A model generated the notes under the pieces. That model ran no database searches, was not told the DNA's origin, and worked only from the letters and a program-made list of their open reading frames with translations. A program made the translations under genes and the position numbers. This document shows positions 4,133 through 44,289 of a stretch of 64,000 nucleotides of DNA, piece by piece. Numbering within the stretch: position 1 is the stretch's first letter; each line of letters starts with the position of its first letter. The stretch covers positions 25,437 to 89,436 of IMG/VR virus record IMGVR_UViG_3300034105_002625, one strand, 5' to 3'. This DNA comes from a virus. Its lineage: Duplodnaviria; Heunggongvirae; Uroviricota; Caudoviricetes.

Positions 4133-4996
4133 ATGTCTAAAAAACATGTTGTAGTATCCTTAAGTGGAGGAATGGACTCAAGTACTTTATTACTTAGATG
4201 CCTAAAAGAGTATGACACAGTTACTGCTATTAGCTTTGACTATGGTCAAAAACACAGAGTAGAGCTAGAGAGAGCTCAATCATTGGTAAACTATATTGGA
4301 GAAGAATCATCATCACAGACTGAATTACGTTATCGTCAAATTAAACTAGACGGATTAGTTGATCTATTAGATTCAGCTTTAGTAACTGGGGGTAAAGATG
4401 TACCAGAAGGTCATTACGAGCAAGACAATATGAAAGAAACAGTTGTTCCTAACAGAAACAAGATGTTCGCTTCTATTGCTCAAGCAGTAGCTTTATCGGT
4501 TGCAAATCGTACAGGAGAGACTTGTGATATTGCAATGGGAATTCATGCAGGTGATCATGCTGTTTATCCAGACTGTAGACAAGAATTTAGAGATGCAGAT
4601 GATAATGCCTTCAGAATGGGTAACTGGGATGCTGAAAGAGTAGGTTATTTTACACCTTATCTTGATACAGACAAATTCGGTATCTTACAGGATGGAGAAG
4701 TTTTATGTAAAGAGTTGTATTTAGATTTTGATGAAGTTTATTCAAGAACTAATACTTCTTATAAACCAATATGGATACCAGGACCTGAAAGTAAATCAAG
4801 AGTAGAAGAAACTCACAGAACAAAATGGGGTGAATGGTACTCAGATTATAAATCAGCATCTTCAGTAGAACGTATCGAAGCATTTATCAAACTAGGAAGA
4901 AAAGATCCAGTTGCTTATGCAGACGAAACAGGACCAGTAACATGGGAAGTAGCAAGAGATGCAGTTCAAAAAGTATTAACAGAACATAATAATTAA
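4133..4996 (+). CDS. queC: QueC-like 7-cyano-7-deazaguanine (preQ0) synthase homolog, atypical (no C-terminal Zn-Cys cluster, ~60 aa C-terminal extension)
   Basis: PP-loop SLSGGMDSS near N-terminus; QueC-like YPDCRQEF and TPYLDTDK motifs; CxxCxxC zinc ribbon of canonical QueC not present. Confidence 0.7.
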   Translation: MSKKHVVVSLSGGMDSSTLLLRCLKEYDTVTAISFDYGQKHRVELERAQSLVNYIGEESSSQTELRYRQIKLDGLVDLLDSALVTGGKDVPEGHYEQDNMKETVVPNRNKMFASIAQAVALSVANRTGETCDIAMGIHAGDHAVYPDCRQEFRDADDNAFRMGNWDAERVGYFTPYLDTDKFGILQDGEVLCKELYLDFDEVYSRTNTSYKPIWIPGPESKSRVEETHRTKWGEWYSDYKSASSVERIEAFIKLGRKDPVAYADETGPVTWEVARDAVQKVLTEHNN

Positions 4997-5677: not shown

Positions 5678-5887
5678 AACACCCCCCAGTAGATAGGTCC
5701 GCCAAGAAAGTCTTTAAACAACGTGGGAACTGCGGCTCTCCCAATGTGGCTGGAATGTTTTATAAAATACCAATGCTCGCTGTTAATTGATGATGGTGTT
5801 AAACGGATGAAAAAGGGTTTATAGTAATCTAGAGTACAAGCAAATCATCAATCAGAAACCCTGAAAGACCAAGGTTGGTAAAAAAAG

Positions 5888-5972
5888 AATAGGTTGGTGT
5901 CAACGGGAAAGTTCCTGCTAGGGTTAACATGGACGATAAGTCTGGATGAAGGTTCGAATCCTTCACCTATTC
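5888..5972 (+). tRNA. isolated class-II (long variable arm) tRNA-like gene, anticodon unresolved (possibly GCT/Ser-like), followed by genomically encoded CCA
   Basis: perfect 7-bp acceptor AATAGGT/ACCTATT; canonical T-arm GAAGG-TTCGAAT-CCTTC; variable-arm hairpin GGAC-GATAA-GTCT; 3' ...C-CA; anticodon stem is weak. Confidence 0.35.
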
Positions 5973-6017
5973 CAAATTTTAAGATTACCGTTCTTTGAAT
6001 TTAAAAAAAACAAAACT

Positions 6018-6299
6018 ATGGAACAAATTTTAGCATTTGTTTTAGGTGTTGGTGCAGTTGCCTTTGTATGGGCAGTTGTGGTAGCGTTTAAGACAACGAA
6101 AAAAGTAAAACAGATTGAATATTCAATCACAGGACATCGAGAATGGATTCAAAACAACGATGCAATGGTTAACAGAAGAATTGATCAAGAAATTGATCGA
6201 GTAGATCTAATCTACACAAATGTATTATCAACTATAGATTCTAGGTTAGATAAATTAGAAGCAAAGATTACAAAAGAAAAACAAGTACTAAAAGGATAA
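6018..6299 (+). CDS. small membrane/coiled-coil protein (start adjusted to internal ATG)
   Basis: ORF track 5946-6299 overlaps the tRNA-like 3' end; internal Met at 6018 (MEQILAFVLG...) begins a TM helix. Confidence 0.35.
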   Translation: MEQILAFVLGVGAVAFVWAVVVAFKTTKKVKQIEYSITGHREWIQNNDAMVNRRIDQEIDRVDLIYTNVLSTIDSRLDKLEAKITKEKQVLKG

Positions 6300-6883: not shown

Positions 6884-7190
6884 AGCAAAAAAATAAATCA
6901 ACCATTAGTTGGTTCGGAAAGGAAAAGTTCATATATTTATATATAGAAAGCAATTAAAATGAAAGCACAACAAAACATACATCAATTAAATCGCACAGCA
7001 GAAAGAGCACTGATATTATCAGCCAGTTCGTTATGGAGTGATATTATATTTGAAGGAAGTGTTATTGGCTTTACGTATAATAATCAACCGAAACAAGGTG
7101 GTACCGAGGTATGATATAGAGATATAACATATAAATTCTAATAAGAAGCTCGGATCAAATAAAAAGATTCGAGTTTTTTTTTACAAAAGA

Positions 7191-7227
7191 GTTGCTAGAA
7201 AGAATAAAAGTTCGTATATTTAGGTAT
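7191..7227 (+). promoter_or_regulatory. promoter for the tRNA array (GTTGCTAG -33-like element + TTCGTATATTTAGGTAT box)
   Basis: TTG, then 20 nt, then TATATTTA fits the Bacteroidetes -33 TTTG / -7 TAnnTTTG architecture; 44 nt upstream of first tRNA. Confidence 0.55.
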
Positions 7228-7270
7228 AAGAAATAAGAATAAGAGTTCATTGACATATTGGATAAAATTT

Positions 7271-7354
7271 GGAAGGCGGCCGAATGGACGAGGAGCTTGT
7301 CTTGAAAACAAGTAGCGGGTAACACCGTTGTGGGTTCGATTCCCATGCCTTCCT
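7271..7354 (+). tRNA. tRNA-Ser (anticodon TGA), class II
   Basis: acceptor GGAAGGC/GCCTTCC; anticodon stem CTTGT/ACAAG with loop CTTGAAA; long variable arm; T-arm TGGGTTCGATTCCCA. Confidence 0.6.
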
Positions 7355-7360
7355 CAATAT

Positions 7361-7431
7361 TGCCCGTTCGTATAAAAGTAGTACACATGTCTTTGACACA
7401 TGCGGAGAAGGAGCGTTACCTTCATGGGCAA
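7361..7431 (+). tRNA. tRNA-Gln (anticodon TTG) with non-canonical T-loop AGCGTTA
   Basis: acceptor TGCCCGT/ATGGGCA (7 bp incl. G-U); anticodon stem CATGT/ACATG with loop CTTTGAC; T-arm GAAGG-AGCGTTA-CCTTC. Confidence 0.45.
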
Positions 7432-7443
7432 CAAATTAAATTT

Positions 7444-7514
7444 CTAGTAGCGAAGCTAGGTTACATGCCTCACTTGGACTGAGGAGTACGCAGGTTCGAA
7501 TCCTGCCTATTAGA
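7444..7514 (+). tRNA. tRNA-Pro (anticodon TGG)
   Basis: acceptor CTAGTAG/CTATTAG (one G-U); anticodon stem CCTCA/TGAGG with loop CTTGGAC; T-arm GCAGG-TTCGAAT-CCTGC. Confidence 0.55.
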
Positions 7515-7519
7515 CAATC

Positions 7520-7590
7520 GCCCTCTAGGCTTTAAAGTGAAGCACCTAGCTTTTAACTAGGGTAAGAAGGAGCATTACCTTCAGGGGGTA
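7520..7590 (+). tRNA. tRNA-Lys (anticodon TTT) with non-canonical T-loop AGCATTA
   Basis: acceptor GCCCTCT/AGGGGGT; anticodon stem CCTAG/CTAGG with loop CTTTTAA; T-arm GAAGG-AGCATTA-CCTTC. Confidence 0.45.
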
Positions 7591-7649
7591 CACGGATGAG
7601 ATTGTTACTAATTCATAGAACTGCATGGTGTGAGCGTAGAATTAGATTT

Positions 7650-7720
7650 GCCTCGTTGGCGTAATGGGAGCGTATTTCTTTTACATGGAAATGGCAGTGG
7701 TTCGATTCCACTACGAGGTA
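7650..7720 (+). tRNA. tRNA-Val (anticodon TAC)
   Basis: acceptor GCCTCGT/ACGAGGT; anticodon stem TTTCT/GGAAA with loop TTTACAT; T-arm AGTGG-TTCGATT-CCACT. Confidence 0.55.
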
Positions 7721-7921
7721 CTAAGTAAGTTAATATGCTGTGAAAGCTTCAATGAGCGCAAGTTGAAGTTAGGTGGGTTCGAGCCCCTCTACTGTAGTAA
7801 TAGCCTAAGTCGGAGGCAGCCAAGTAGCAGATAACATATTATAGCCGATTTGGGTTGTGCACCTCGTCCGAGAAGCCCTAATAGTTCCTAATAGTTCGGT
7901 ATGGAACAACTTACTTAAAAT

Positions 7922-7992
7922 GGGGACAACAGGCAAGGTGCCGAGCAGCTCTGTAAAAGCTCACTGGGTAGGTTCGATTCCTACTGGCCCCA
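7922..7992 (+). tRNA. tRNA-like gene, tentative anticodon GTA (Tyr) in a class-I (short variable arm) scaffold
   Basis: acceptor GGGGACA/TGGCCCC (one A:G mismatch); T-arm GTAGG-TTCGATT-CCTAC; 4-bp anticodon stem AGCT/AGCT with loop CTGTAAA. Confidence 0.3.
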
Positions 7993-8098
7993 CAAAGTCA
8001 TGGCATCAAATCCCGGTAGGGGTGCTGACTTAAAATAAACAACGATGGTGAAAATGGAGTCCTGCAGGCTAACCAGAAGTAACAACGAGGGGATAATT

Positions 8099-8171
8099 GG
8101 GGATTAAGCTAATCTAGTGAAAGCGCTAGCCTGAAGAGTTAGAGAGATCGGAGCGTAACCGATAGTCCCCA
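8099..8171 (+). tRNA. tRNA-Phe (anticodon GAA) with non-canonical T-loop AGCGTAA
   Basis: acceptor GGGGATT/AGTCCCC; anticodon stem CTAGC/GTTAG with loop CTGAAGA; T-arm ATCGG-AGCGTAA-CCGAT. Confidence 0.45.
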
Positions 8172-8178
8172 CAATATT

Positions 8179-8251
8179 GGTCTGAAGCTTAAGAGGTATA
8201 CAGCGGAGGTTTGTTAAACCTAGGATAGCAGGTTCGAGTCCTGTCAGACCA
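8179..8251 (+). tRNA. tRNA-like gene, anticodon unresolved
   Basis: perfect acceptor GGTCTGA/TCAGACC; T-arm CAGG-TTCGAGT-CCTG; anticodon arm does not fold canonically by eye. Confidence 0.3.
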
Positions 8252-8478
8252 GCAAAACTACTGAAATTGAATGACACGAGCTTCATACGTTCGAAAGGAG
8301 TCATGCAGTAGTTTAAAATGTTCGTATAGATGTGCTGTGGATACGCAGGGAACACATCGAGTGGGTTAATGATGGTAGTAGGTACACAACACTCCTTAAT
8401 ACTAGGATTGGAGCGAAGGGTTGATGCATACTGCAGGTAATTAACAAGACTGGTTCGATTCCAGTTACGGGCGCAATT

Positions 8479-8550
8479 TCTCCTATAGTAGAATGGTTAG
8501 CACACATCTCTGATAAGGATGAAATGGAAGTTCAATTCTTCCTAGGAGTA
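8479..8550 (+). tRNA. tRNA-Ile (anticodon GAT)
   Basis: acceptor TCTCCTA/TAGGAGT (1:72 mismatch); anticodon stem CATCT/GGATG with loop CTGATAA; T-arm GGAAG-TTCAATT-CTTCC. Confidence 0.5.
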
Positions 8551-8662
8551 CAAAAGTTACCACGCTTGTTCCGTCAGTGGTTGTAAAGTCGAATCAATAA
8601 ACGGAACCCCAAATGGAGGTCTTGCCTTAGTAGACTAAAGATTCTAAACGACAACTTTAAAT

Positions 8663-8745
8663 GGAAAGTAAATCAACTAGGAGTTGAGACCGCTTGCTAA
8701 GCGTATCGTGCCTTCGGGCATGGGGTTCGATACCTCTACTTTCCT
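8663..8745 (+). tRNA. tRNA-Ser (anticodon GCT), class II
   Basis: perfect acceptor GGAAAGT/ACTTTCC; anticodon loop TTGCTAA on a short G-C stem; variable-arm hairpin GTGCC-TTCG-GGCAT; T-loop TTCGATA; 83 nt. Confidence 0.45.
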
Positions 8746-8955
8746 CTTTAAAAACCTGGTCCCTGTCCTCATAAAGTGTTTAAGGAACACAGGAGTTGAA
8801 TGTGCATTCGGGGCGGATAGTGGTGGGACACTGATAAATAAAATCTTAAGCACAAAGATAAGTTAACGGGTTCTTATCAACTACCGACTTGATCTAGGAT
8901 CGAAAATATCTCATAAGTATTTTCAGACAAGAGCGTAACTTGTAGTCGGTACAAA

Positions 8956-9034
8956 GCTAAAGTGGTGAAATTGGTAAACACTCCCATCGAGAGATGGTGC
9001 GGATTTTGTAGGTTCGAGTCCTACCTTTAGTGTA
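8956..9034 (+). tRNA. tRNA-like gene, anticodon unresolved
   Basis: acceptor GCTAAAG/CTTTAGT; T-arm GTAGG-TTCGAGT-CCTAC; 79 nt. Confidence 0.3.
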
Positions 9035-9038
9035 TATG

Positions 9039-9110
9039 GTGTTTCTAGCTTAATCGGTAAAGTGCTTCACTGTGAATGAAGAGAACAGGGTTCGAAACCC
9101 GGAAACACAC
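9039..9110 (+). tRNA. tRNA-His (anticodon GTG) with extra 5' G(-1)
   Basis: anticodon stem CTTCA/TGAAG with loop CTGTGAA; 8-bp-type acceptor GTGTTTC/GAAACAC; T-loop TTCGAAA. Confidence 0.5.
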
Positions 9111-9204
9111 GACGACGCCCAAAGGACGATCGACCTGGCCAGAGACTAGTTCTTGCAAACTCAATGCCTAAAGTTGAGCGGCCAATCTATGGGATTGGCT
9201 TTAC

Positions 9205-9277
9205 ATCCCTGTGGTGAAACGGTAAACACAACGAGTTTAAGCCTCGTAAGCTGCAGGTTCGACTCCTGTCAGGGATA
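9205..9277 (+). tRNA. class-I tRNA with apparent anticodon TAA (Leu-type anticodon without long variable arm), A73
   Basis: perfect acceptor ATCCCTG/CAGGGAT; anticodon stem ACGAG/CTCGT with loop TTTAAGC; 3-nt variable region; T-arm GCAGG-TTCGACT-CCTGT; 73 nt. Confidence 0.4.
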
Positions 9278-9282
9278 CAAAT

Positions 9283-9355
9283 GGTCTTGTAGCATAAATG
9301 GAAATGCACTTGAATACGAATCAAGAGATTGTAGGCTCGAATCCTACCAGGACTT
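9283..9355 (+). tRNA. tRNA-Arg (anticodon ACG)
   Basis: acceptor GGTCTTG/CAGGACT; anticodon stem CTTGA/TCAAG with loop ATACGAA; T-arm GTAGG-CTCGAAT-CCTAC. Confidence 0.6.
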
Positions 9356-9360
9356 CAATT

Positions 9361-9432
9361 GCCCTATTAGTTAAACGGATATAACGAATCTCTTCTAAAG
9401 ATTAATTCTAGGTTCGATTCCTGGATGGGGTA
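9361..9432 (+). tRNA. tRNA-Arg (anticodon TCT)
   Basis: acceptor GCCCTAT/ATGGGGT; anticodon stem AATCT/AGATT with loop CTTCTAA; T-arm CTAGG-TTCGATT-CCTGG. Confidence 0.6.
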
Positions 9433-9495
9433 CAAAAAAATCGTATTGGAAGAAAGTTTGATCAACTTTCGTAGGTTAAGCGATATCCTACAAAT

Positions 9496-9566
9496 GCAGG
9501 TCACAGACAAGGTGTCGGTACGGTCTCCAAAACTGCTACGGGTAAGTTCGATTCTTACGGTCTGCG
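9496..9566 (+). tRNA. tRNA-Trp (anticodon CCA)
   Basis: acceptor GCAGGTC/GGTCTGC; anticodon stem CGGT/ACTG (+1 mismatch) with loop CTCCAAA; T-arm GTAAG-TTCGATT-CTTAC. Confidence 0.5.
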
Positions 9567-9598
9567 CAAAATAAATTGTTTCATTTAAAATTAAAATC

Positions 9599-10105
9599 AT
9601 GAGTAAGTACCAAAGAACACTGGTAATTGATTCAAGCTTTATGGCAAGATCTATTATCTCTACCGAAAGAGCTTTCGTGATTTCGTATAAGGGTAATGCA
9701 GAAGTTATAGCTGAACATCCAGAAACATTCGGATTAGTAAATCCGGATTTAAAAATTAATAAACCTTCAATCATTAGGGTTTACAAATACGTAAAACAAG
9801 ACATTCAAAAAGTTCCTCTAACAAGAGAGAACATTTATCGAAGAGATAATTACGAATGTGTTTATTGTGGATCAAGTTACTTGAAGTCACTAACACTTGA
9901 CCATGTCATCCCACAATCAAAAGGTGGAGCAAATGCTTGGGATAATTTAGTAACAGCATGTAGAACTTGCAATTCAGAAAAAGCAGATTTAACTCTTGAG
10001 GAATATGGTAAAGACATAGTAGAACCAAAAAGACCTCATTATCTAATGCTTATGAAACAGTTAACATACATTCCAAAAGAATGGGAAACATTTTTATTTT
10101 TCTAG
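9599..10105 (+). CDS. free-standing HNH homing endonuclease inserted in the tRNA array
   Basis: 168 aa; CVYCGSSY...LDHVIPQSKGGANAWDNLVTACRTCNSEK is an HNH/zinc-ribbon motif; located between tRNA-Trp and the second promoter of the array. Confidence 0.8.
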   Translation: MSKYQRTLVIDSSFMARSIISTERAFVISYKGNAEVIAEHPETFGLVNPDLKINKPSIIRVYKYVKQDIQKVPLTRENIYRRDNYECVYCGSSYLKSLTLDHVIPQSKGGANAWDNLVTACRTCNSEKADLTLEEYGKDIVEPKRPHYLMLMKQLTYIPKEWETFLFF

Positions 10106-10113
10106 TAAAAAAA

Positions 10114-10150
10114 GTTGCTAGAAAGAAATAAAGTTCGTATCTTTAAGTAT
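10114..10150 (+). promoter_or_regulatory. promoter (GTTGCTAG + TTCGTATCTTTAAGTAT box) for the second half of the tRNA array
   Basis: same bipartite motif as 7191-7227, immediately after HNH stop. Confidence 0.5.
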
Positions 10151-10227
10151 AAGAAAGAAACATCACCTACTACGTAACGCACGATCGACGACACGTACTG
10201 TCTGGCAGGTCAGGCTAGGTGATAAAT

Positions 10228-10297
10228 GGGCAGGGTGGTCTTGGAGGCCGGTGGCATTGCAACAGCTACAGACAGAGTTCGATTCTCTGCTTGCCCT
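10228..10297 (+). tRNA. tRNA-like gene, tentative anticodon GCA (Cys)
   Basis: acceptor GGGCAGG/CTTGCCC; T-arm CAGAG-TTCGATT-CTCTG; anticodon stem TGGC(A)/(A)GCTA with loop TTGCAAC. Confidence 0.35.
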
Positions 10298-10393
10298 CAT
10301 TGAAGGTTCGACCCTCTACCATCTTGTATTACACCTACAGATGGATATCGAGAGGGAGCTACCGATTGATAAGTGACCGCACATGCGGTAAAT

Positions 10394-10465
10394 GCCCGAG
10401 TGGTGGAACGGTAGACACGCTAGTCTTAGGAACTAGATACTGAGGGTTCGAATCCCTCCTTGGGT
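10394..10465 (+). tRNA. class-I tRNA with apparent anticodon TAG (Leu-type anticodon without long variable arm), A73
   Basis: acceptor GCCCGAG/CTTGGGT; anticodon stem CTAGT/ACTAG with loop CTTAGGA; 5-nt variable region; T-arm GAGGG-TTCGAAT-CCCTC; 72 nt. Confidence 0.4.
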
Positions 10466-10545
10466 ACGATAGTAGGACCGGGTTACCGGATATGGGTTCC
10501 TTAATTGGACAGAAGGACTGGAGTCCTAGTCGCCTACAAAATAAA

Positions 10546-10613
10546 ATTAGAGTTCGCTTATAGTAAAGCAGCAGGGGCTAACCTGCAGAAGGGATTCCAA
10601 CACCCACTCTAAT
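10546..10613 (+). tRNA. degenerate tRNA-like element / possible tRNA pseudogene
   Basis: perfect 7-bp acceptor ATTAGAG/CTCTAAT; D-stem GCTT/AAGC; anticodon-like hairpin GCAGG-GGCTAA-CCTGC with a 6-nt loop; weak T-arm GGG-ATTCCAACA-CCC. Confidence 0.25.
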
Positions 10614-10619
10614 TTACTT

Positions 10620-10693
10620 GCTCTCGACGCACAAATGGTGGTGCACCGGATTTGTAACCCGGAATAGAGCCAGTTCGATCCTGGCCGAGAGCT
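10620..10693 (+). tRNA. tRNA-Thr (anticodon TGT)
   Basis: perfect acceptor GCTCTCG/CGAGAGC; anticodon loop TTTGTAA on CCGG(A)/(C)CCGG stem; T-arm GCCAG-TTCGATC-CTGGC. Confidence 0.55.
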
Positions 10694-10701
10694 CAATAAA
10701 T

Positions 10702-10774
10702 GCGAATGTCGTATAACGGCTCATTACTCTTGACTTCCAATCAAGGAATGAGGGTTCGATTCCCTCCATTCGCT
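10702..10774 (+). tRNA. tRNA-Gly (anticodon TCC)
   Basis: perfect acceptor GCGAATG/CATTCGC; anticodon stem CTTGA/TCAAG with loop CTTCCAA; T-arm GAGGG-TTCGATT-CCCTC. Confidence 0.6.
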
Positions 10775-10780
10775 CAAAAT

Positions 10781-10852
10781 GGCCCTATCGTCTATCGGTT
10801 AGGACACATGGTTTTCATCCATGAAAGTCGGGTTCGACTCCCGGTGGGGCTA
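10781..10852 (+). tRNA. tRNA-Glu (anticodon TTC)
   Basis: acceptor GGCCCTA/TGGGGCT; anticodon stem CATGG/CCATG with loop TTTTCAT; T-arm TCGGG-TTCGACT-CCCGG. Confidence 0.6.
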
Positions 10853-10857
10853 CAATT

Positions 10858-10929
10858 GGGGCTATAGTATAACGGCTATTACAATGGTTTTGCAAATCAT
10901 AAATTGGAGTTCGATTCTCCATAGCTCCA
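10858..10929 (+). tRNA. tRNA-Ala (anticodon TGC) with G3:U70 identity pair
   Basis: acceptor GGGGCTA/TAGCTCC gives G3:U70; anticodon stem ATGGT/ATCAT with loop TTTGCAA; T-arm TGGAG-TTCGATT-CTCCA. Confidence 0.65.
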
Positions 10930-10934
10930 CAAAA

Positions 10935-11007
10935 GGTCTATTCGTTCAACGGCTAGGACACTACCCTGTCACGGTAGGGATGAGAGTTCGATTCTCTCAT
11001 AGACCGC
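10935..11007 (+). tRNA. tRNA-Asp (anticodon GTC)
   Basis: perfect acceptor GGTCTAT/ATAGACC; anticodon stem CTACC/GGTAG with loop CTGTCAC; T-arm GAGAG-TTCGATT-CTCTC. Confidence 0.65.
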
Positions 11008-11012
11008 TATAT

Positions 11013-11086
11013 CGCGAGTTGGTAGAAGATGGTATCTCGCTAGGCTCATAACCTAGAGGTCGGGGGTTCGAATCCCTCACTCGCTA
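11013..11086 (+). tRNA. tRNA-Met (anticodon CAT)
   Basis: anticodon stem CTAGG/CCTAG with loop CTCATAA; T-arm GGGGG-TTCGAAT-CCCTC; acceptor CGCGAGT/ACTCGCT with one terminal mismatch. Confidence 0.5.
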
Positions 11087-11091
11087 CTAAT

Positions 11092-11166
11092 GTCCTTTTA
11101 GCTCAGCCCGGTTAGAGCAGCTCGCTCATAACGAGAAGGTCACAGGTTCGAATCCTGTATAGGACA
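11092..11166 (+). tRNA. second CAT-anticodon tRNA (elongator Met, or Ile2 after lysidine modification)
   Basis: acceptor GTCCTTT/ATAGGAC; D-arm GCTCAGCCCGGTTAGAGC; anticodon loop CTCATAA on CTCG/CGAG stem; T-arm ACAGG-TTCGAAT-CCTGT. Confidence 0.5.
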
Positions 11167-11196
11167 CAAAAATTTTATCCAATAAAAATAAAAGTT

Positions 11197-11694: not shown

Positions 11695-12606
11695 ATGAAA
11701 AATTCATTAGCAGCAAAAGGGTTATCAATGTCACAAGCACAATCAATCTCAAACTTGTGCAATCAACGTTCAAAAGATATTACAGCACAATTGGCTGATA
11801 TCAATAACGTTTCAAAAGAATTAGTAATAGGTTCAGATACCTATACTGAGGTTAAAGGAAATCCAATTCCAGCAAACGTAGTTGAATTATTAACTGCTAA
11901 AGCAAGATTATCTGCCACTCAAGCATTCTTGATGGAGAACATCAAGGCTAAGGACGAATTGATTAACAAAATCAAATACGAAGGATTTCAGTACTCAGTA
12001 GAGGCTCCAGTTCGTCCACAAACAATCTCAGAAAACATTCCAACAGAAGTGGATGAGGATTTTGGTTGGGATACTTTAACAACAGCCGAATACAATGAAT
12101 TTATAGAGGCAGAGGCTTATGCTTCACATATTGGACAATTTATCCACAAAGGAGGTAAATTGGATCGATTGAGAGCAGAACTTCCTACCATTAAAACTTT
12201 AGAGTTTATGGAAATTGAAGTAGGAAAGAAAACTCCACTTAAAATAACTATTCATCATACTGCAGCACAATTGCTTACAATCCATGAGGAGTTAGCAGCA
12301 TTACACAGAGGGTATGAGCAAAAAGTGAATTACTTCAAATCTAAGATTAAAAATGCTACTACTTCTGAGAATGCTAAAATTCAGAAAGAGAGAGGAGAAA
12401 TTCAAGCAAGAGTTAACCAACAAAACTCAGACCTAGCAAATGCTTATAAATTAGCATATGAGCAATGGACTGCAGAGCAACGTAAAGCTCAACACGAGTT
12501 TGAAGAAAAACGTCAAGCAAAAATTCAAGATGCTGTCAATTTAAAAATTGAAGTAGCAGAAAGATTTCAATCTGTAGTAGATGAATTTTTAAATCAATTA
12601 AAATAA
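11695..12606 (+). CDS. hypothetical protein (303 aa)
   Basis: long ORF, K/E-rich C-terminal coiled-coil-like region. Confidence 0.4.
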   Translation: MKNSLAAKGLSMSQAQSISNLCNQRSKDITAQLADINNVSKELVIGSDTYTEVKGNPIPANVVELLTAKARLSATQAFLMENIKAKDELINKIKYEGFQYSVEAPVRPQTISENIPTEVDEDFGWDTLTTAEYNEFIEAEAYASHIGQFIHKGGKLDRLRAELPTIKTLEFMEIEVGKKTPLKITIHHTAAQLLTIHEELAALHRGYEQKVNYFKSKIKNATTSENAKIQKERGEIQARVNQQNSDLANAYKLAYEQWTAEQRKAQHEFEEKRQAKIQDAVNLKIEVAERFQSVVDEFLNQLK

Positions 12607-12998: not shown

Positions 12999-13649
12999 AT
13001 GAAAATTACATTAGAAAAAGATCAAAGAATCTTCTTTACATCAGACACACATTACGCTCACTCAAACATCTGTAGTGCTACTACAAACTGGACTGAGTCT
13101 TCGAACTTGACAAGAGAATTCAATTCACTTGATCATATGAACCAAGTACTTGTTGATAACATCAACAACATGGTTGGTGAAGATGATATCTTAATTCATT
13201 TAGGAGATTTTAGCTTTGGAGGATTTGATAAGATACAAGAATTCAGAAGTAGAATCCTTTGTAAAAACATTCACTTGGTACTTGGAAATCATGATCACCA
13301 CATTGAAAGAAACAAAGAAGGAGTTCAAAAACTATTCTCTTCAGTACAAAACTACTTGAGATTAGAAGTAAGAAAGCCAATTAATAAGGCATTAACAGAC
13401 AAGCATATTTTCGTTTGTATGCACTATCCAATTGCGTCATGGCATGATATGAACCAAGGAGTAATTCACTTGCATGGCCACGTGCATTTACCTTCACACC
13501 TACGAATAGCAGAGGGTAAAGCAATGGATGTTGGAGTAGATGGAAATGGTTTAGAGCCTTTATCACTAGGAGAGATCCTTATGATTATGAAAGACCAACC
13601 AATTAGAAAATTAGAGTTACCAAAGGATCATCACGAAAAAAGAATCTAA
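12999..13649 (+). CDS. calcineurin-like metallophosphoesterase (putative RNA-end-healing 2',3'-cyclic/3'-phosphatase)
   Basis: 216 aa; GDFSFGG and GNHDHH motifs of the metallophosphatase superfamily; adjacent to P-loop kinase and RNA ligase. Confidence 0.65.
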   Translation: MKITLEKDQRIFFTSDTHYAHSNICSATTNWTESSNLTREFNSLDHMNQVLVDNINNMVGEDDILIHLGDFSFGGFDKIQEFRSRILCKNIHLVLGNHDHHIERNKEGVQKLFSSVQNYLRLEVRKPINKALTDKHIFVCMHYPIASWHDMNQGVIHLHGHVHLPSHLRIAEGKAMDVGVDGNGLEPLSLGEILMIMKDQPIRKLELPKDHHEKRI

Positions 13650-13650
13650 T

Positions 13651-14037
13651 ATGAAAGAGTTATTTTTATTAAGAGGATTACCTGGATCAGGTAAATCAAC
13701 ATTTGCAAAGGCATTAACAGGTGTTTATACTATAGAAGCAGATAAGTACTTTATGGATGGAGATGAATATAAATTTGATCCGTCTAAACTAAAAGATGCA
13801 CATGCTTGGTGTCAAAATACTACACGGGTTTGGATGACAACTGGTGTAAAAAGAATCACAATAGCAAACACATTTACTCAGGAATGGGAAATGCAACCAT
13901 ACTACGATTTAGCTAAAGAGTACGGATACAGAGTTTACTCTTTGATTGTAGAAAATAGACATGAAGGGGTAAATGAACATGGAGTACCAGAAGAAAAATT
14001 AGTACAAATGAAAAATAGATTCGAGATCAAGCTATGA
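13651..14037 (+). CDS. P-loop polynucleotide-kinase-like protein
   Basis: 128 aa; Walker A GLPGSGKST at residues 9-17; size and context match AAA_33 / Pnk kinase domains. Confidence 0.55.
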   Translation: MKELFLLRGLPGSGKSTFAKALTGVYTIEADKYFMDGDEYKFDPSKLKDAHAWCQNTTRVWMTTGVKRITIANTFTQEWEMQPYYDLAKEYGYRVYSLIVENRHEGVNEHGVPEEKLVQMKNRFEIKL

Positions 14038-14252
14038 GAGTAGTAGAAGAGTTTGATGTTCAAGGAAGAGTTATTAAACAAAAAATAGCAGGCCCTTACT
14101 ATGATTCTATTTGGACTTACGAGTATCAAGGAGATACAGTCATTGAAAAAAGAAGTGATGCTGTTTGGACTAAAATTATAAATCATAAGGATAAGACATC
14201 TAAATTAGTTTATCCTGATAAAAAAGAATACAATATAACTTATAATACATAA
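14034..14252 (+). CDS. hypothetical protein
   Basis: 72 aa ORF, start overlaps upstream stop (ATGA). Confidence 0.3.
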   Translation: MRVVEEFDVQGRVIKQKIAGPYYDSIWTYEYQGDTVIEKRSDAVWTKIINHKDKTSKLVYPDKKEYNITYNT

Positions 14253-14255
14253 GAA

Positions 14256-15398
14256 ATGGAAAATAATAACAGTGTTTGCTTTATAGCAAAAATAAATGAA
14301 GTAAGAGCAATTGAAGGAGCAGATAACATCGAACTTGTAATCGCAGGTGGGTGGAATGCTATTACTAAAAAAGGTGAATTTAAAGTAGGTGATGAAACAA
14401 TCATTGCAACTACTGATGCAGTTATACCAGAATCTCTTTCTGAGGAAATGGGAGTTGCTTCTTACCTAAGAAAAGGAGGTAGAGTAAGAACTGTTAAACT
14501 AAGAGGAGTTTATTCTGAATGTTTAATCATTCCAATGACTTACCTTAGGGGTAAAGCCACAATGGGGGATTGGGATTTAAAAGAAGGAAGTGACTGCATG
14601 GAACTATTAGGTATCACCAAATACGAACCACCAGTTAAACAAATTCAACTTGCTTCAGGTAGAAAAATCAAATGGAGAGACAATCAAAACTTCCATATCT
14701 ATTACAAATTCCCAAACCTTAAAAACGTTGATGGAATGTTTACAGAAGAAGATACAGTAGAGATTTCTCGTAAAATTCATGGTACAAATGCTAGATACGG
14801 TATTGTAAAAAAGACTAAATTGTCATTCTGGGATAAAGTAAAAAAATTCTTTAGATTAGCTGATAAGTGGATTAACTACGAATACATTTACGGTTCACAT
14901 AACTGTGAGAAAGGATCTGACTCTCAAGGATTTTATTCTGAAGATGTTTGGAAAACAATTGCTGAGAAGTATGATATTAAAGCTAAGCTTTGGAAATATG
15001 TTAAAGATACAGCTAATATTGTAGACATTGGAAGTGGTATAGTACTCTATGGAGAAATTTATGGAGCAGGTATTCAAAAGAACTATGACTATGGATTGGA
15101 TGATATTAAATTTATAGGATTTGATACAACTATGAAAGGTGACTATAATTCACCAGCGGGTACTTACGGTGCATTTCATTCACTAGACTTACCTTATATT
15201 GAAGTACTTTATTTTGGACTTTGGAATCAAGAAGTACAGGATAAGTTTGTATTTAACAACTTCATTGAAGGAACAAAAGTACCACATGAAGGAATTGTAA
15301 TCAAACACAGTTCAGGAGATAGAAAAAAAGTAGCAAAGGTAATCAATCCAGACTATTTGATCTACGGAGAGAAGAATGATGTAGGAGATTCACATTAA
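14256..15398 (+). CDS. ATP-dependent RNA ligase (Rnl2/Rnl5-like) with N-terminal OB-fold tRNA-binding-like domain
   Basis: 380 aa; nucleotidyltransferase motif I KIHGTN (lysine-adenylate site, as in T4 Rnl2); first ~100 aa resemble the Myf/Trbp111 tRNA-binding OB fold (…GADNIELVIAGGWNAI…LRGVYSECLIIP). Confidence 0.65.
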   Translation: MENNNSVCFIAKINEVRAIEGADNIELVIAGGWNAITKKGEFKVGDETIIATTDAVIPESLSEEMGVASYLRKGGRVRTVKLRGVYSECLIIPMTYLRGKATMGDWDLKEGSDCMELLGITKYEPPVKQIQLASGRKIKWRDNQNFHIYYKFPNLKNVDGMFTEEDTVEISRKIHGTNARYGIVKKTKLSFWDKVKKFFRLADKWINYEYIYGSHNCEKGSDSQGFYSEDVWKTIAEKYDIKAKLWKYVKDTANIVDIGSGIVLYGEIYGAGIQKNYDYGLDDIKFIGFDTTMKGDYNSPAGTYGAFHSLDLPYIEVLYFGLWNQEVQDKFVFNNFIEGTKVPHEGIVIKHSSGDRKKVAKVINPDYLIYGEKNDVGDSH

Positions 15399-15912: not shown

Positions 15913-16530
15913 ATGGAAGACTTTTTCGAAGATTTAAAAAACAGACCAAGACCAAACTTATTCAGAAGAATATACCTTTGGTGGGCACATGATGGAAAGT
16001 ATTATCACAAATACTTCAAACAAGGAGTAAAGAATCTATGGTACTGGTTTCCAATCATCTGGAAGGATAGAGATTGGGATGGTCATTACATCTTTGAGAT
16101 ACTACAGCACAAATTGGAAGCACAAGCCAATTACATTGGAAGAAGAGATCTTCACACAAGAGCACAGCTTGATGCTAAAAGAATGAGACTTTGCATCTCT
16201 TTAATTAAGAAAGTGCAAGAGGAAGACTACACAATGGAGTATATGGACTACCATAAGGACAGAGTTTGGTTTACAGATGTTGAAGACAGACCAGGAAATT
16301 CTCTATATAATTCAGAAGAAGTATGGGAAAAGTATGATGAATATTTTGCTAAATATCCTTTAGTTTATAAAAGAGTAATGAAAGGAGATGGAGTATTTAC
16401 TTTAGATGGTAGAAATGAATCTGATATAAAAAGAGTCATTGCAATGAATATTGCTCACCTTAATCACGACAGAGCAAGAAAATTGTTATTTAAAATAATG
16501 GAAGAGAACATCGAGGGTTGGTGGGACTAA
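15913..16530 (+). CDS. hypothetical protein (205 aa)
   Basis: ORF with good coding appearance; no recognised motif. Confidence 0.35.
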   Translation: MEDFFEDLKNRPRPNLFRRIYLWWAHDGKYYHKYFKQGVKNLWYWFPIIWKDRDWDGHYIFEILQHKLEAQANYIGRRDLHTRAQLDAKRMRLCISLIKKVQEEDYTMEYMDYHKDRVWFTDVEDRPGNSLYNSEEVWEKYDEYFAKYPLVYKRVMKGDGVFTLDGRNESDIKRVIAMNIAHLNHDRARKLLFKIMEENIEGWWD

Positions 16531-27094: not shown

Positions 27095-27805
27095 ATGTCA
27101 AATAAAAAATTTATCGACGGTACAGAATTAGTACAAGCCGGATTCGCTAATGGTATTTCATCTCAATTAGCTAAAAAACAATTAACAGATGGTCCAGAGG
27201 CAAGACTAACTGAAGTAGAAAAGCAACACATAATCGAAGATGCAGCAGAAGCATTTGGTAACTTCTTAACAGCTTTAGGTACTGATTGGAAGAATGATCC
27301 AAATTCATCTGATACTCCAAAGAGAGTTGCAAAGGCTTATGTAAATGATCTATGGGCAGGAAGGTATGCACCACTTACTCAAATCACAGCATTTCCTTCA
27401 GATGGATATGATGGAATAGTTCAAGAGAGTAACATACCAGTTACTTCAATGTGTTCACATCACCACCAAACAATCTCCGGAGAGGTAAGCATAGCTTATA
27501 TTCCCTCTAAAGATGGAAAGGTAGTTGGGCTTTCAAAACTAAATAGAATTGTAGAGCAGTTTGCTAGACGTGGAGCAATCCAAGAACAGTTAACAGTTGC
27601 AATTCATAATGCAGTAGATAAAATCTGTGAAGGGAATCTAGGAGTAGCAGTAGCAATCTCAGCAACACATAACTGCGTATCATGTAGAGGAATTAAACAT
27701 CAAGGAGCTTCAATGCAAACAGCAAAGCTAACAGGATGTTTCTTAGAAGAAGATTCAGCAAGAGCAGAATTCTATTCAAATATTAAACTCGGAAAAAATA
27801 ACTAA
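27095..27805 (+). CDS. folE: GTP cyclohydrolase I
   Basis: 236 aa; MCSHHHQ (cf. CEHH) and HNCVSCRGIKHQG (cf. HxCMxxRGV) signature motifs. Confidence 0.85.
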   Translation: MSNKKFIDGTELVQAGFANGISSQLAKKQLTDGPEARLTEVEKQHIIEDAAEAFGNFLTALGTDWKNDPNSSDTPKRVAKAYVNDLWAGRYAPLTQITAFPSDGYDGIVQESNIPVTSMCSHHHQTISGEVSIAYIPSKDGKVVGLSKLNRIVEQFARRGAIQEQLTVAIHNAVDKICEGNLGVAVAISATHNCVSCRGIKHQGASMQTAKLTGCFLEEDSARAEFYSNIKLGKNN

Positions 27806-30785: not shown

Positions 30786-31712
30786 ATGACACAAGAATTA
30801 AATCAAGCAGAAGTTGTAAAGATTGCAGGAAAGCATCTAGGACAAGTAGGTGGAGCAGGTTATAGCGATACTTATGATCCAAGCCTATTGGTAGAAATTC
30901 CACGTTACTTGAATAGAGAAGCGTATGGAATTGATGATAACAGTTTACCATTCGTGGGAGGAGATGTATGGAATGCATACGAAGTATCTGCAATTACTAC
31001 AAAAGGACTTCCAGTTGTTGGAATGTTAAAGATTTGGTATCCAGCAGATTCAAAACTTCACGTAGAGTCTAAATCAATTAAATTGTATTTGAATTCATTC
31101 AATATGACTCAATTGGGAGAAACAGATCATGAATGTATCAAGTTACTAAAACAAAGAGTAAAGAAAGACTTATCTGACTTACTACAAACAAAAGTACAGG
31201 TAGAGATGTTTACCTCAGAGCATTCTCCAAGCTATGCCTTCAAAGGATATGCACCACTAGATGCTTTAGTAGATCTAAATGCAATTGAATTTACTTCTTA
31301 CCATTCAGACGCTACACAATTGGAAACAGAAGAAGTAGATGAGGATGTTGAAATAGGAGAAATAAAAGTACAATCAAATCTTTTAAGATCAAATTGTAGA
31401 GTAACAAATCAACCAGACTGGGGTGATGTATTTATTCACATCAAGCCTAAAGCAGGAGTTGTTCCTAATCTACAATCACTAGCAAAATATATTGTAAGTC
31501 ATAGACAAGTAAGTCACTTCCATGAAGAGATTTGTGAAATGATCTACATGCACTTAAAAGAAGCTTACAATCCAGAAGAATTAATGGTAGCTTGTCTTTA
31601 CACTCGTAGAGGAGGATTAGATATTAATCCAATTAGAGCTTCACATAAGAAACTAATACCAGGATTCTTTACAGACATTACTTGTAGAATGGCTAAAACA
31701 TTACGTCAATAA
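30786..31712 (+). CDS. queF: QueF-type NADPH-dependent 7-cyano-7-deazaguanine (preQ0) reductase, bimodular type
   Basis: 308 aa; QueF motif ESKSIKLYL and catalytic-Cys block CRVTNQPDWGDV. Confidence 0.65.
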   Translation: MTQELNQAEVVKIAGKHLGQVGGAGYSDTYDPSLLVEIPRYLNREAYGIDDNSLPFVGGDVWNAYEVSAITTKGLPVVGMLKIWYPADSKLHVESKSIKLYLNSFNMTQLGETDHECIKLLKQRVKKDLSDLLQTKVQVEMFTSEHSPSYAFKGYAPLDALVDLNAIEFTSYHSDATQLETEEVDEDVEIGEIKVQSNLLRSNCRVTNQPDWGDVFIHIKPKAGVVPNLQSLAKYIVSHRQVSHFHEEICEMIYMHLKEAYNPEELMVACLYTRRGGLDINPIRASHKKLIPGFFTDITCRMAKTLRQ

Positions 31713-34449: not shown

Positions 34450-36398
<1,949 letters not shown>

Positions 36399-42542: not shown

Positions 42543-42544
42543 TT

Positions 42545-43831: not shown

Positions 43832-44289
43832 TGGAAGAAAAAATGTCAATCTGTCCACATTGTGGAGGAAATGCTTGCTATGAACAAGCAGTAACAGAAG
43901 AAGTAACAACAAGCTTTTGCTTTGGATGCGGGTATTCAACTTCAACTCTAATGGTTGAAGGAGGAGATTTAGTAAACAAAACACTAGAAGCATCACCAGA
44001 ACTTTATAAAGATCTTATGTTTGTAAGTGAAGATAAGAAAGTATGGTTCCCTTCTACAGTTACTCTTCCAAATAAAGGAATGGTATTCTTAGACGGAACA
44101 GCAAAAGAGAATTGGAGATGGGCAGCAGTAACCTCAGTAGAGATTCTAGAAGAAGAGAAAGCTAAATTTCCAAAAGGTCAGACAACTAAAATGGATATGA
44201 AAAATATCAAACATTTTGAGAAAGAAGATTTTATGGAAGCATTAGATGCTATCAAATTCTTTGATGTAGAAGTTGCTGAATCAGAATAA
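43831..44289 (+). CDS. zinc-ribbon protein
   Basis: 152 aa; CPHCGG…CFGCGYS. Confidence 0.3.
   Translation: MEEKMSICPHCGGNACYEQAVTEEVTTSFCFGCGYSTSTLMVEGGDLVNKTLEASPELYKDLMFVSEDKKVWFPSTVTLPNKGMVFLDGTAKENWRWAAVTSVEILEEEKAKFPKGQTTKMDMKNIKHFEKEDFMEALDAIKFFDVEVAESE

Follow-up and report, generated by a model that had tools for sequence, protein, structure and literature searches.

A compact phage tRNA array with a complete decoding set and rewired tRNA elbows

Why would a phage carry its own transfer RNA (tRNA) genes for every amino acid, and are all of them genuine? The question is raised by a stretch of 64,000 nucleotides (nt) of a Caudoviricetes genome (positions 25,437 to 89,436 of IMG/VR record IMGVR_UViG_3300034105_002625), which we refer to as the window and in which an original prediction, made from the letters alone, had placed a very large tRNA array split by an HNH endonuclease gene. 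We found 26 tRNA genes on the + strand at 7271-11167, which cover all 20 amino acids and every codon box; the set, which had been called near-complete, is in fact complete. The array adds a compact new example to a known kind, the T5-like tRNA regions of phages. Our favoured interpretation, which we hold with moderate confidence, is that this is a tRNA island organised in two operons, carried by a Flavobacterium-type myophage of ~160 kb that is related to Immutovirus, and that it would allow translation independent of host tRNAs and tolerance of tRNA loss.

The window is phage DNA (31-41% GC) that encodes a family A DNA polymerase (PolA), GroEL, thymidylate synthase, an endolysin and a holin. 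Its PolA is 94% identical to that of Flavobacterium phage vB_FspM_immuto (160-kb genome, genus Immutovirus), and a megablast search of the array against 50,697 phage records returned only a 54-nt match to tRNA-Met, so there is no close cultured relative at the DNA level. The open reading frame (ORF) at 11695-12606, just 3' of the array, led to 80 related IMG/VR loci at 49-96% identity (L numbers below designate compared loci), 44 of which have at least 10 tRNAs beside its homolog; more than 25 related contigs keep the gene order of the window nearly exactly, with the flanking protein 60-96% identical. Close relatives have anything from no tRNAs at this locus (L029) through one to six (L006, L007, L019-L023) to more than 26, which marks the island as accessory and modular.

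A complete set of tRNA genes

Default ARAGORN called 18 tRNAs, all on the + strand within 7271-11167 and none in the rest of the 64 kb, and Rfam at its gathering threshold (29 bits for RF00005) reported 19 in the window, gaining Phe 8099 and Asn 8178 over the ARAGORN list and lacking Cys 10228. With laxer filters, Gln 7361-7431 in a regional scan and Lys 7520-7590 scanned alone also scored above 29 bits. In all, 21 of the 26 genes reach the covariance-model threshold, so such models do not find far fewer tRNAs than the manual folding behind the original prediction. The eight genes missed by default ARAGORN are called in its relaxed (-ps) or mitochondrial (-mt) modes, namely Gln, Lys, Tyr, Trp, Ser(GCT) and the CAT-anticodon species at 8883-8952, together with Asn and Phe, which Rfam also finds. 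As for the genes below the Rfam threshold, Cys 10228-10298 has a default ARAGORN call only and no Rfam match; Tyr 7922-7993 is sub-threshold; Trp 9495-9566 and Ser(GCT) 8663-8746 match only the clan member tRNA-Sec, whose own threshold is 47 bits; and the CAT species at 8883-8952 has no Rfam match. The last four are counted on the basis of relaxed calls and of comparative evidence from the sister arrays, in which Tyr, Trp and Ser(GCT) are 96-99% conserved. All 26 show in ARAGORN a cloverleaf with a 7-bp acceptor stem, D-, anticodon and T-arms, a 7-nt anticodon loop, U33 and a purine at 37. The predicted count and every tRNA identity named at the time have held up, and the genes then left without an assignment can now be given as Leu(GAG), Leu(TAA), Leu(TAG), Cys, Tyr, Asn and a third CAT species.

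The genes are listed in their 5' to 3' order, with the HNH gene lying between Trp and Cys:

7271..7355, + strand: tRNA-Ser(TGA), long variable arm (ARAGORN; Rfam 35.5 bits)
7361..7432, + strand: tRNA-Gln(TTG), rewired elbow with T-loop AGCGTTA and D-loop AAAAGTA (Rfam 42.1 bits; ARAGORN -ps)
7441..7515, + strand: tRNA-Pro(TGG) (ARAGORN; Rfam 37 bits)
7520..7591, + strand: tRNA-Lys(TTT), rewired elbow with T-loop AGCATTA and D-loop TAAAGTG (Rfam 37.1 bits; ARAGORN -ps)
7650..7721, + strand: tRNA-Val(TAC), canonical elbow (ARAGORN; Rfam)
7922..7993, + strand: tRNA-Tyr(GTA), 72 nt, without long variable arm (Rfam 27.1 bits, sub-threshold; ARAGORN -mt)
8099..8172, + strand: tRNA-Phe(GAA), rewired elbow with T-loop AGCGTAA and D-loop ..CTAGTGAA (Rfam 44.2 bits; relaxed ARAGORN)
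8178..8253, + strand: tRNA-Asn(GTT) (Rfam 49.2 bits; ARAGORN -mt)
8479..8551, + strand: tRNA-Ile(GAT) (ARAGORN; Rfam)
8663..8746, + strand: tRNA-Ser(GCT), long variable arm (ARAGORN -ps; tRNA-Sec 27.4 bits; 98.9% identical in L012)
8883..8952, + strand: compact CAT tRNA, 70 nt, rewired T-loop AGCGTAA (ARAGORN -mt only; no Rfam match)
8956..9032, + strand: tRNA-Leu(GAG), 77 nt, without long variable arm (ARAGORN; Rfam 42.2 bits)
9038..9110, + strand: tRNA-His(GTG), extra 5' G encoded (ARAGORN; Rfam)
9205..9278, + strand: tRNA-Leu(TAA), 74 nt, without long variable arm (ARAGORN; Rfam 63.3 bits; family lengths 74-89 nt)
9283..9356, + strand: tRNA-Arg(ACG), C54 in T-loop (ARAGORN; Rfam)
9361..9433, + strand: tRNA-Arg(TCT) (ARAGORN; Rfam)
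9495..9566, + strand: tRNA-Trp(CCA) (tRNA-Sec clan match 30.4 bits; ARAGORN -mt; 97.5% identical in L003 and L034)
10228..10298, + strand: tRNA-Cys(GCA) (default ARAGORN; no Rfam match; in all large sister arrays)
10394..10467, + strand: tRNA-Leu(TAG), 74 nt, without long variable arm (ARAGORN; Rfam 63.3 bits)
10620..10694, + strand: tRNA-Thr(TGT) (ARAGORN; Rfam)
10702..10775, + strand: tRNA-Gly(TCC) (ARAGORN; Rfam)
10781..10853, + strand: tRNA-Glu(TTC) (ARAGORN; Rfam)
10858..10930, + strand: tRNA-Ala(TGC), G3:U70 (ARAGORN; Rfam)
10935..11007, + strand: tRNA-Asp(GTC) (ARAGORN; Rfam)
11013..11087, + strand: CAT tRNA, initiator-like, CGCG start, 1:72 unpaired (ARAGORN; Rfam)
11092..11167, + strand: CAT tRNA, elongator Met or Ile2 (ARAGORN; Rfam 64.3 bits)

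Sister arrays add to several of these entries: the Lys gene has a 100% identical copy in L036, Tyr is 96-99% identical in L004, L012, L013 and L034 within a family of 71-85 nt, and the ortholog of Trp is called as Trp(CCA) in most of them. The array is tightly packed, with 1,932 of its 3,897 nt in tRNA sequence and 15 of the 25 gaps between neighbouring tRNAs measuring 3-8 nt.

In terms of decoding, seven four-codon boxes are served by a U34 tRNA and the Arg CGN box by ACG, with an extra Leu GAG species; two-codon boxes have G34 for pyrimidine-ending and U34 for purine-ending codons, and Trp has CCA. The three CAT species are presumably the initiator, Met and Ile2 tRNAs. From its CGCG start and unpaired 1:72 we infer that 11013..11087 is the initiator; the phage uses ATA for 35% of its Ile codons, so that one CAT tRNA is probably Ile2, and the compact CAT species could be either Ile2 or elongator Met. 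Because finders at default settings miss rewired or atypical genes such as these (8 of 26 for ARAGORN here; the tRNA-Lys of phage Lbo-JY46, discussed below, is unannotated), phage tRNA repertoires are probably under-counted.

Two minor observations concern single tRNAs. The extra G-1 of tRNA-His (9038-9110) stands opposite A73, whereas bacteria usually have C73. A more distant relative (L049, 9246-9320) has a well-formed tRNA with anticodon TTA, a would-be ochre suppressor; the register of its T-rich loop is ambiguous and it could also be Lys(TTT).

Two putative operons and their possible role

The layout of the island and of its 3' neighbourhood is as follows:

7149..7182, + strand: terminator-like hairpin (8-bp stem, 9-nt loop, then T9), read from the sequence; upstream boundary of the first tRNA operon
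7190..7233, + strand: promoter-like motif, copy 1, AGTTGCTAGAAAGAATAAAAGTTCGTATATTTAGGTATAAGAAA (pattern match, no mismatch)
9599..10105, + strand: HNH endonuclease, 168 aa, same orientation as the tRNAs, no separate promoter motif (Pfam HNH_5 6.5e-16; PHROG 16726 9e-32)
10113..10156, + strand: promoter-like motif, copy 2 (pattern match, no mismatch)
12999-13649, + strand: metallophosphoesterase (Pfam Metallophos 1.2e-05)
13651-14037, + strand: P-loop kinase (AAA_33; Pfam 4.9e-13)
14256-15398, + strand: Rnl5-type (DraRnl/NgrRnl) RNA ligase with N-terminal OB domain (RNA_ligase 2.2e-11; NgrRnl structures 1.8e-13)
16518..16949, + strand: cREC_REC (cyclic-phosphate processing receiver) domain protein (Pfam PF20274 3.6e-21)

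Promoter-like copies are present at the two places where conserved promoters had been proposed, and both 44-nt sequences fit a shared pattern without mismatch where no match is expected by chance. The core of the motif, AAAGTTCGTATNTTTA, has 22 matches in the window at up to three mismatches against 5.6 expected. Eleven good copies all lie on the + strand between listed ORFs, with GTTG(c/g)nAGA about 20 nt upstream, and the GTTG-N20-TAtaTTTA layout, read by eye in 11 aligned copies, has what we take to be a resemblance to the Bacteroidota -33/-7 promoter (-33 TTTG, -7 TAnnTTTG, spacing 19-21 nt). A sigma-70-type scan, to whose scope Bacteroidota promoters do not belong, found 12 sites against 12.6 expected and thus no enrichment; it scored 7192-7220 at 9/12. 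In relatives the motif recurs at the same two sites, before the leader and Ser(TGA), and after the HNH gene before the leader and Cys. On this pattern both copies are putative promoters. The hairpin at 7149..7182 is omitted by our terminator scan because its loop exceeds 8 nt.

Under our favoured interpretation, each operon would start at a copy of this genome-recurrent motif, probably read by the host RNA polymerase, and give a polycistronic transcript with many tRNAs 3-8 nt apart. Host RNase P and 3' nucleases would process the transcripts, and a CCA-adding enzyme would be needed to complete the tRNAs, since none of the 26 encodes its 3' CCA. The phage could in this way translate its own genes largely without the host tRNA pool and, with the help of its kinase, phosphoesterase and RNA ligase, infection may tolerate loss or cleavage of host tRNAs, be it through host shut-off or tRNA-targeting defence. 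Phage tRNAs have been found to rescue infection from PARIS, retron effectors and anticodon nucleases, and an interpretation in terms of translation and counter-defence appears reasonable and in line with current literature (PMC10264068, PMC11464382, PMC11555353).

The RNA-repair genes said to adjoin the array are indeed present at 12999-15398 and 16518-16949, as judged by Pfam, NgrRnl structures and TIGR02306; to the last of these the ligase matches at 5.6e-27 and 94.5 bits, below the curated cut-off of 151 bits. A second metallophosphoesterase also belongs to the block, which keeps its synteny in most of the relatives whose flank is at least 69% identical and in some loci stands beside a small array. 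A 5'-kinase, a phosphoesterase and an ATP-dependent RNA ligase, the components of a healing-and-sealing set, are thus predicted to be encoded together.

The most serious alternative, which we consider possible but clearly less probable, is plain codon supply: the array would top up decoders of A-ending codons for an AT-rich phage, especially for its late genes, with no link to defence or host tRNA loss. The 16,066 codons of the window ORFs have a GC content of 0.24 at third positions. In each of the eight four-codon boxes, as in the purine-ending two-codon boxes, the phage uses the A-ending codon most, and this codon is matched, Watson-Crick, by a U34 tRNA of the array. Large computational studies tie phage tRNAs to codon usage (PMC13015707). 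On the other hand, the set is complete rather than selective and serves even rare codons, such as CTC (Leu GAG, 2%), CGT (Arg ACG, 7%) and AGC (Ser GCT, 7%), and RNA-repair genes lie next door. Moreover, Flavobacterium genomes have an AT content similar to that of the phage (34% GC), and a large codon mismatch would therefore not be expected.

Several observations weigh against our favoured interpretation. The codon match fits plain supply equally well, and five of the 26 tRNAs score below the Rfam threshold. Array and repair genes are not strictly coupled, since L006, L007 and L023 carry the ligase with only one to three tRNAs. Finally, immuto manages with four tRNAs at the locus and no kinase or ligase homolog in the 20 kb examined.

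Could the island instead be mainly a selfish cassette, whose HNH gene drives preferential inheritance in co-infections and whose tRNAs bring little benefit? The tRNA content of the locus, which differs so widely among close relatives, would agree with this, as would the fact that HNH genes are typical of phage tRNA regions (the T5 record and, reportedly, SegB of T4). The HNH gene itself, predicted mid-array as a free-standing endonuclease, is confirmed by Pfam (HNH_5, PF14279; HNH, PF01844, 2.8e-15) and by its motif, in which the beta-beta-alpha-metal pattern, His/Asn and two CxxC pairs are found (CVYC...DH...N...CRTCN); PDB matches of its product are to HNH domains of IscB, Cas9 and similar proteins. 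Its homologs occur in 37 loci, none with an internal stop. In 35 of the 44 arrays that have 10 tRNAs or more, the gene stands behind tRNA-Trp; its orientation is constant across the collinear arrays, and even the rearranged arrays L042-L045 keep it after Trp. Loci whose flanking ORF is closer to that of the window also tend to have a closer HNH copy (r=0.73), and the HNH identity is mostly the higher of the two. No near-identical empty (HNH-less) allele was found among the related arrays. With a fixed slot, no stops and an identity that tracks the flank, conservation of the HNH gene therefore fits vertical inheritance of a resident gene under selection, not recent insertion.

Several findings speak against a selfish cassette. 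Divergence of the HNH gene parallels that of its neighbours and is smaller than that of the flanking ORF. Some large arrays do without an HNH gene (L058, L060 and L061, all distant, with 53-54% flank identity). Between widely diverged loci, the gene order, the anticodons and, through compensatory changes, the stems have been maintained, which points to selection on the tRNAs themselves. We therefore regard this alternative as unlikely. The island as a whole appears to be under purifying selection, judging by a gene order that is shared even though the flanking protein is only 60-96% identical, and by the compensatory stem changes. In our favoured interpretation, the HNH gene would be a long-resident part of the island, probably co-transcribed with the first operon; homing is possible by analogy with T5 and T4, and the gene may, like T4 SegB, promote inheritance of the island through gene conversion of the homing type.

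Known systems help to place the island. The T5 record (NC_005859, ~28-41 kb) has ~25 co-oriented tRNAs that serve almost every amino acid, interspersed with several internal promoters, with free-standing HNH genes and with what its annotation calls 'tRNA-like stable RNAs with unknown functions'. The window similarly combines at least 20 co-oriented tRNAs with internal promoters (here putative), one HNH gene and comparable spacer RNAs. However, the T5 region is longer, at ~13 kb against 3.9 kb, and holds many small ORFs and six HNH genes where the window array has one; all 24 ARAGORN-called T5 tRNAs have the canonical T54/A58, whereas the window has rewired elbows; T5 Leu(TAG) and Tyr keep a long variable arm (85-88 nt), which those of the window do not; and the hosts belong to different phyla. 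As for homology, no T5-like record is among the blastn matches listed for the array against the same 50,697 phage records (these are of ~150 nt or less, to immuto and Cellulophaga phages), and PolA is ~26% identical to that of T5-like phages (Demerecviridae).

In T4, polynucleotide kinase/phosphatase and RNA ligase mend cleaved tRNA (PMC10264068), and kinase, phosphoesterase and ligase genes are likewise found in the window. The enzymes differ, being Pnkp/Rnl1 in T4, whereas the window has a ligase of the Rnl5 type and its kinase and phosphoesterase as separate proteins; moreover, what T4 repairs is tRNA-Lys cleaved by PrrC, and a counterpart of this anticodon nuclease is not known for the host of the window phage. 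The T4 tRNA cluster also has stable RNAs, like the window, but only 8 tRNAs. It carries the homing-type endonuclease gene SegB, which is GIY-YIG rather than HNH.

The closest cultured relative, immuto (NC_055915), has its tRNA island downstream of QueC, as in the window, and shares the promoter motif, a 95-nt RNA (10299-10393), tRNA-Ser(TGA), tRNA-Glu and an upstream tRNA-like element. Only four tRNAs are annotated at its locus, and the region examined (20 kb) has no homolog of the HNH, kinase, RNA ligase or cREC_REC protein. Cellulophaga phage phi4:1 (NC_021788) is another Bacteroidota phage with 23 annotated co-oriented tRNA features, but its genome is unrelated, with a different gene order, no HNH gene in the array and a Tyr that keeps its long arm. 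The window array is thus one more, very compact, case of a full decoding set beside RNA-repair genes, and its more than 25 sister arrays lend themselves well to comparative work on the idea that phages use tRNAs against host defences.

Rewired elbows and shortened tRNAs

In non-mitochondrial tRNAs the T54-A58 and G18-Psi55 pairs of the elbow are treated as near-universal. A canonical elbow (G18-G19; T54-Psi55-C56...A58) is found in 21 of the 26 tRNAs, the exceptions being Arg(ACG), with C54, and four rewired species, Gln, Lys, Phe and the compact CAT tRNA. In these four a T-loop AGCRTWA (A54, G55, U58), in the form of AGCGTTA, AGCATTA or AGCGTAA, replaces TTCGAnT, and C56 and G19 are retained. 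The D-loops of Gln, Lys and Phe have AG instead of the expected GG (A18); in the compact CAT tRNA A18 is not clear. Hairpins with the AGCRTWA loop number 52 on the + strand and none on the - strand of the window and related loci; 51 of the 52 lie within a cloverleaf, and their T-stems co-vary, as do the acceptor and anticodon stems of these tRNAs.

The states of the elbow among 689 unique tRNA sequences from 51 arrays were counted as follows:

54/58 T/A, 55 T, D-loop 18-19 GG: 611 of 689
54/58 A/T, 55 T, D-loop 18-19 GG: 25 of 689
54/58 A/T, 55 G, D-loop 18-19 AG: 17 of 689
54/58 A/T, 55 G, D-loop 18-19 other or ambiguous: 12 of 689
54/58 T/A, 55 G, any D-loop: 0 of 689

The 12 other or ambiguous cases comprise six with neither GG nor AG and six with GG; the CAT tRNA, whose D-loop is tiny, accounts for 10 of the 12. 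Positions 55 and 18 co-vary, U55 with G18 and G55 with A18, in seven tRNA families. Alignments show one tRNA body in two or three elbow states, cleanly so in Lys, Gln, Val, Asp, Glu and Phe; for Thr, the rewired form stands on the canonical body and the intermediates on a different one. A good example is Val, canonical in the window and rewired in L011, L013, L017 and L036, which combines D-loop AATGGAA with T-loop TTCGATT, AATGGAA with ATCGTAA, or AATAGAA with AGCRTAA. The rule for 18 and 55 also holds in a further class, with G54/G58: His and one Leu(TAG) combine G55 with AG, and tRNA-Lys of Leptolyngbya phage Lbo-JY46 combines T55 with GG. The rewired-Lys pattern (D-arm TAAAGTGAAGCA, anticodon loop CTTTTAA and T-loop AGCATTA at fixed spacing) has exact matches on 39 IMG/VR contigs, and every rewired tRNA is the sole decoder of its codons in the array.

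We are thus highly confident that rewired, compensated elbows exist, and the compensation argues for selection to fold as tRNAs. While some non-canonical members of the array score low or not at all with the Rfam tRNA model and lack elbow nucleotides that are otherwise near-universal, the idea that the non-canonical ones (Gln, Lys, Phe, the compact CAT, and the short Leu and Tyr) are decaying pseudogenes, leaving a working set of fewer than 26, is highly improbable in the face of hairpins confined to the + strand and almost always set in a cloverleaf, co-varying T-, anticodon and acceptor stems, joint change of 18 and 55 in seven families, a Lys pattern kept on 39 separate contigs, and a sole-decoder role for each rewired species.

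What the rewiring is for is a far more tentative matter. Aquatic phages could have evolved, as an adaptation, a second compensated elbow, in which the 54/58 pair is reversed to A54/U58 or becomes G54/G58 and A18:G55 then takes the place of G18:Psi55, but we regard this as doubtful. More speculatively, a rewired tRNA might still serve the ribosome and the synthetases while being hidden from host readers of the T-loop or elbow, such as defence tRNases or TrmA, TruB and TrmI. Since the PARIS nuclease AriB reportedly reads the D-loop besides the anticodon stem, changes in the tRNA body can matter (PMC12409363), which makes escape through the elbow plausible at most. Alternatively, rewired elbows could have arisen by compensated drift under the relaxed needs of a phage tRNA.

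On a limited literature check, the combination of A54/U58 with A18/G55 is apparently undescribed, because the reviews consulted give only A54/A58, in eukaryotic initiator tRNA and tRNA-Ala, one of them stating that it is not observed in bacterial or archaeal tRNAs. T-loops with A54 and a purine at 60 occur in eukaryotic initiator tRNA and tRNA-Ala(AGC) (PMC7566577); the phage loops are alike in having A54 and a purine (A60), but differ in having U at 58 and, in the derived form, G55 with A18. Compensated replacement in seven tRNA families amounts to a natural covariation experiment on the tRNA elbow, and we consider this structural result the more interesting part of the study.

Related observations come from two other phages. 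Lbo-JY46 (PP438436; L082, 2015-2086) has a tRNA-Lys(TTT) that is 79% identical to the window Lys, with T-loop GTCGGTA, and is unannotated in GenBank; it heads the tRNA array of that phage, which also holds a homing endonuclease gene, and a window-like promoter motif (AAAAAAGTTTATATCTTTG) stands just upstream of the first genes of the array. Of the 23 array tRNAs that ARAGORN calls in phi4:1, 21 are canonical; in the other two (L153, 4326-4398 and 6725-6799), tRNA-Lys(TTT) departs from the canonical 54/58 pair, as the window Lys does (T-loop ATCGGTA), and the T-loop of tRNA-Phe reads GTCGAAG. Across the window clade, Lbo-JY46 and phi4:1, tRNA-Lys(UUU) is the species most often rewired at 54/58.

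The array also differs in content from known cases in that class II tRNAs have been converted to class I shape. Leu(TAA) and Leu(TAG), both of 74 nt, Leu(GAG) of 77 nt and Tyr of 72 nt lack a long variable arm (a stem-loop of more than 10 nt); both Ser tRNAs retain theirs (84-85 nt). The orthologs of Leu and Tyr in relatives span 71-89 nt, and the long arm was therefore lost within the clade; the Leu D-arms of the array are presumably still like those of bacterial tRNA-Leu. The compact CAT tRNA (8883-8952) has a 3-nt D-loop and an anticodon stem of ~6 bp, and a cloverleaf of 69-71 nt is kept in more than 20 loci, with co-varying stems, T-stems included. ARAGORN calls of SeC(TCA) in L025, L028 and L030 were considered as opal suppressors and rejected, as they are a mis-register of this compact tRNA (loop CTCATAA).

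Spacer RNAs and the wider window

Several new structured RNAs are a further difference of the array from known cases, and these spacers resemble, as far as one may judge, the stable RNAs of the T5 tRNA region:

7234..7270, + strand: leader from promoter copy 1 to the first tRNA (homologous in 29 related loci)
7722..7921, + strand: 200-nt element with a 10-bp closing stem, TAAGTAAGTT/AACTTACTTA, and a T-arm-like stretch inside (fold z-score -1.95)
8320..8472, + strand: 153-nt tRNA-like RNA with acceptor GTTCGTA/TACGGGC, canonical T-arm and long extended central arm (5-locus consensus fold)
8753..8872, + strand: multi-branch structured RNA (18 loci; 14-sequence consensus fold, 5 compensatory pairs)
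10157..10227, + strand: leader hairpin of the second operon (26 loci; fold z-score -1.7)
10299..10393, + strand: three-helix RNA, type unassigned (22 loci; 16-sequence fold, 5 compensatory pairs; z-score -2.85)
10468..10542, + strand: structured spacer closed by GTAGG/CCTAC (15 loci; z-score -1.7)
10546..10613, + strand: tRNA-like cloverleaf; 6-nt 'anticodon' loop GGCTAA, T-arm replaced by a 3-bp stem and 9-nt loop (38 loci; z-score -3.67)

The most widely conserved module is 10546..10613, in which 99.2% of cells are paired and five pairs show compensatory change; none of 500 shuffles equalled its fold. In 8320..8472, changes among the five loci preserve pairing of the acceptor and the arm (z-score -2.2 for 8254-8478). 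Both RNAs fail the anticodon-loop criterion and were left out of the tRNA count. The 8753..8872 RNA lies directly 5' of the compact CAT tRNA wherever checked, and 10299..10393 is also found in immuto, 5' of its tRNA-Ser. The 200-nt element occupies a variable slot between Val and Tyr; it is common only to L002, other arrays having an extra tRNA there. Of the three further T-arm-bearing stretches in the original prediction, 8390-8473 is the 3' portion of the 8320-8472 tRNA-like RNA and 7722-7800 lies within the 200-nt element, while 8560-8660 proved to be without a canonical T-arm.

No Rfam family was found for 10546-10613, 10299-10393, 8753-8872 or 8320-8472. For 10299-10393, a hammerhead ribozyme was rejected as the CUGAUGA core is not kept (the window has ATTGATAAG), and a circularly permuted tRNA for lack of a fitting anticodon-type loop; neither found an Rfam match. 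A match to YrlA (Y RNA-like) at 9232-9342 was likewise dismissed, with 22 bits against a threshold of 69 and an overlap with two ordinary tRNAs; none of the ~50 ORFs scanned against Pfam has a Ro/TROVE domain.

Upstream of the array, a conserved non-coding region of ~210 nt (5678-5887), its first ~110 nt near-invariant in nine loci, is followed at 5888-5973 by an 86-nt tRNA-like element whose T-arm is canonical and which encodes its 3' CCA, as none of the 26 array tRNAs does. This tRNA-like part varies between loci and is annotated as tRNA-Cys in the immuto record. Because ORF 5946-6299 overlaps its T-arm, the true start of that ORF is probably further downstream. A tmRNA or a minimal RNase P RNA, formed by 5678-5887 with the tRNA-like 3' end, was considered, but ARAGORN called no tmRNA, and a lax Rfam scan of the 331 nt gave only a weak tRNA-Sec match, to the tRNA-like part; the region keeps no assignment.

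Elsewhere, the window encodes a full 7-deazaguanine (preQ0/preQ1) pathway of QueC, QueD (PTPS), QueE (radical SAM), FolE and QueF (4133-4996, 24322-25558, 27095-27805 and 30786-31712), which could serve DNA hypermodification or provide queuosine for the phage tRNAs with GUN anticodons (Tyr, His, Asn and Asp); among the same ~50 ORFs, none matched the Tgt/DpdA family. A run of ~14 kb of sugar-metabolism genes (41100-55508), unusually large for a phage, includes several GT1 and GT2 glycosyltransferases, a DegT-type aminotransferase, an NAD-dependent dehydratase/epimerase and a thiamine pyrophosphate-dependent enzyme. The GroEL-type chaperonin (34758-36398) has an 80%-identical copy on a contig of an 'uncultured bacterium' metagenome-assembled genome (L083), which is probably a mis-binned related phage.

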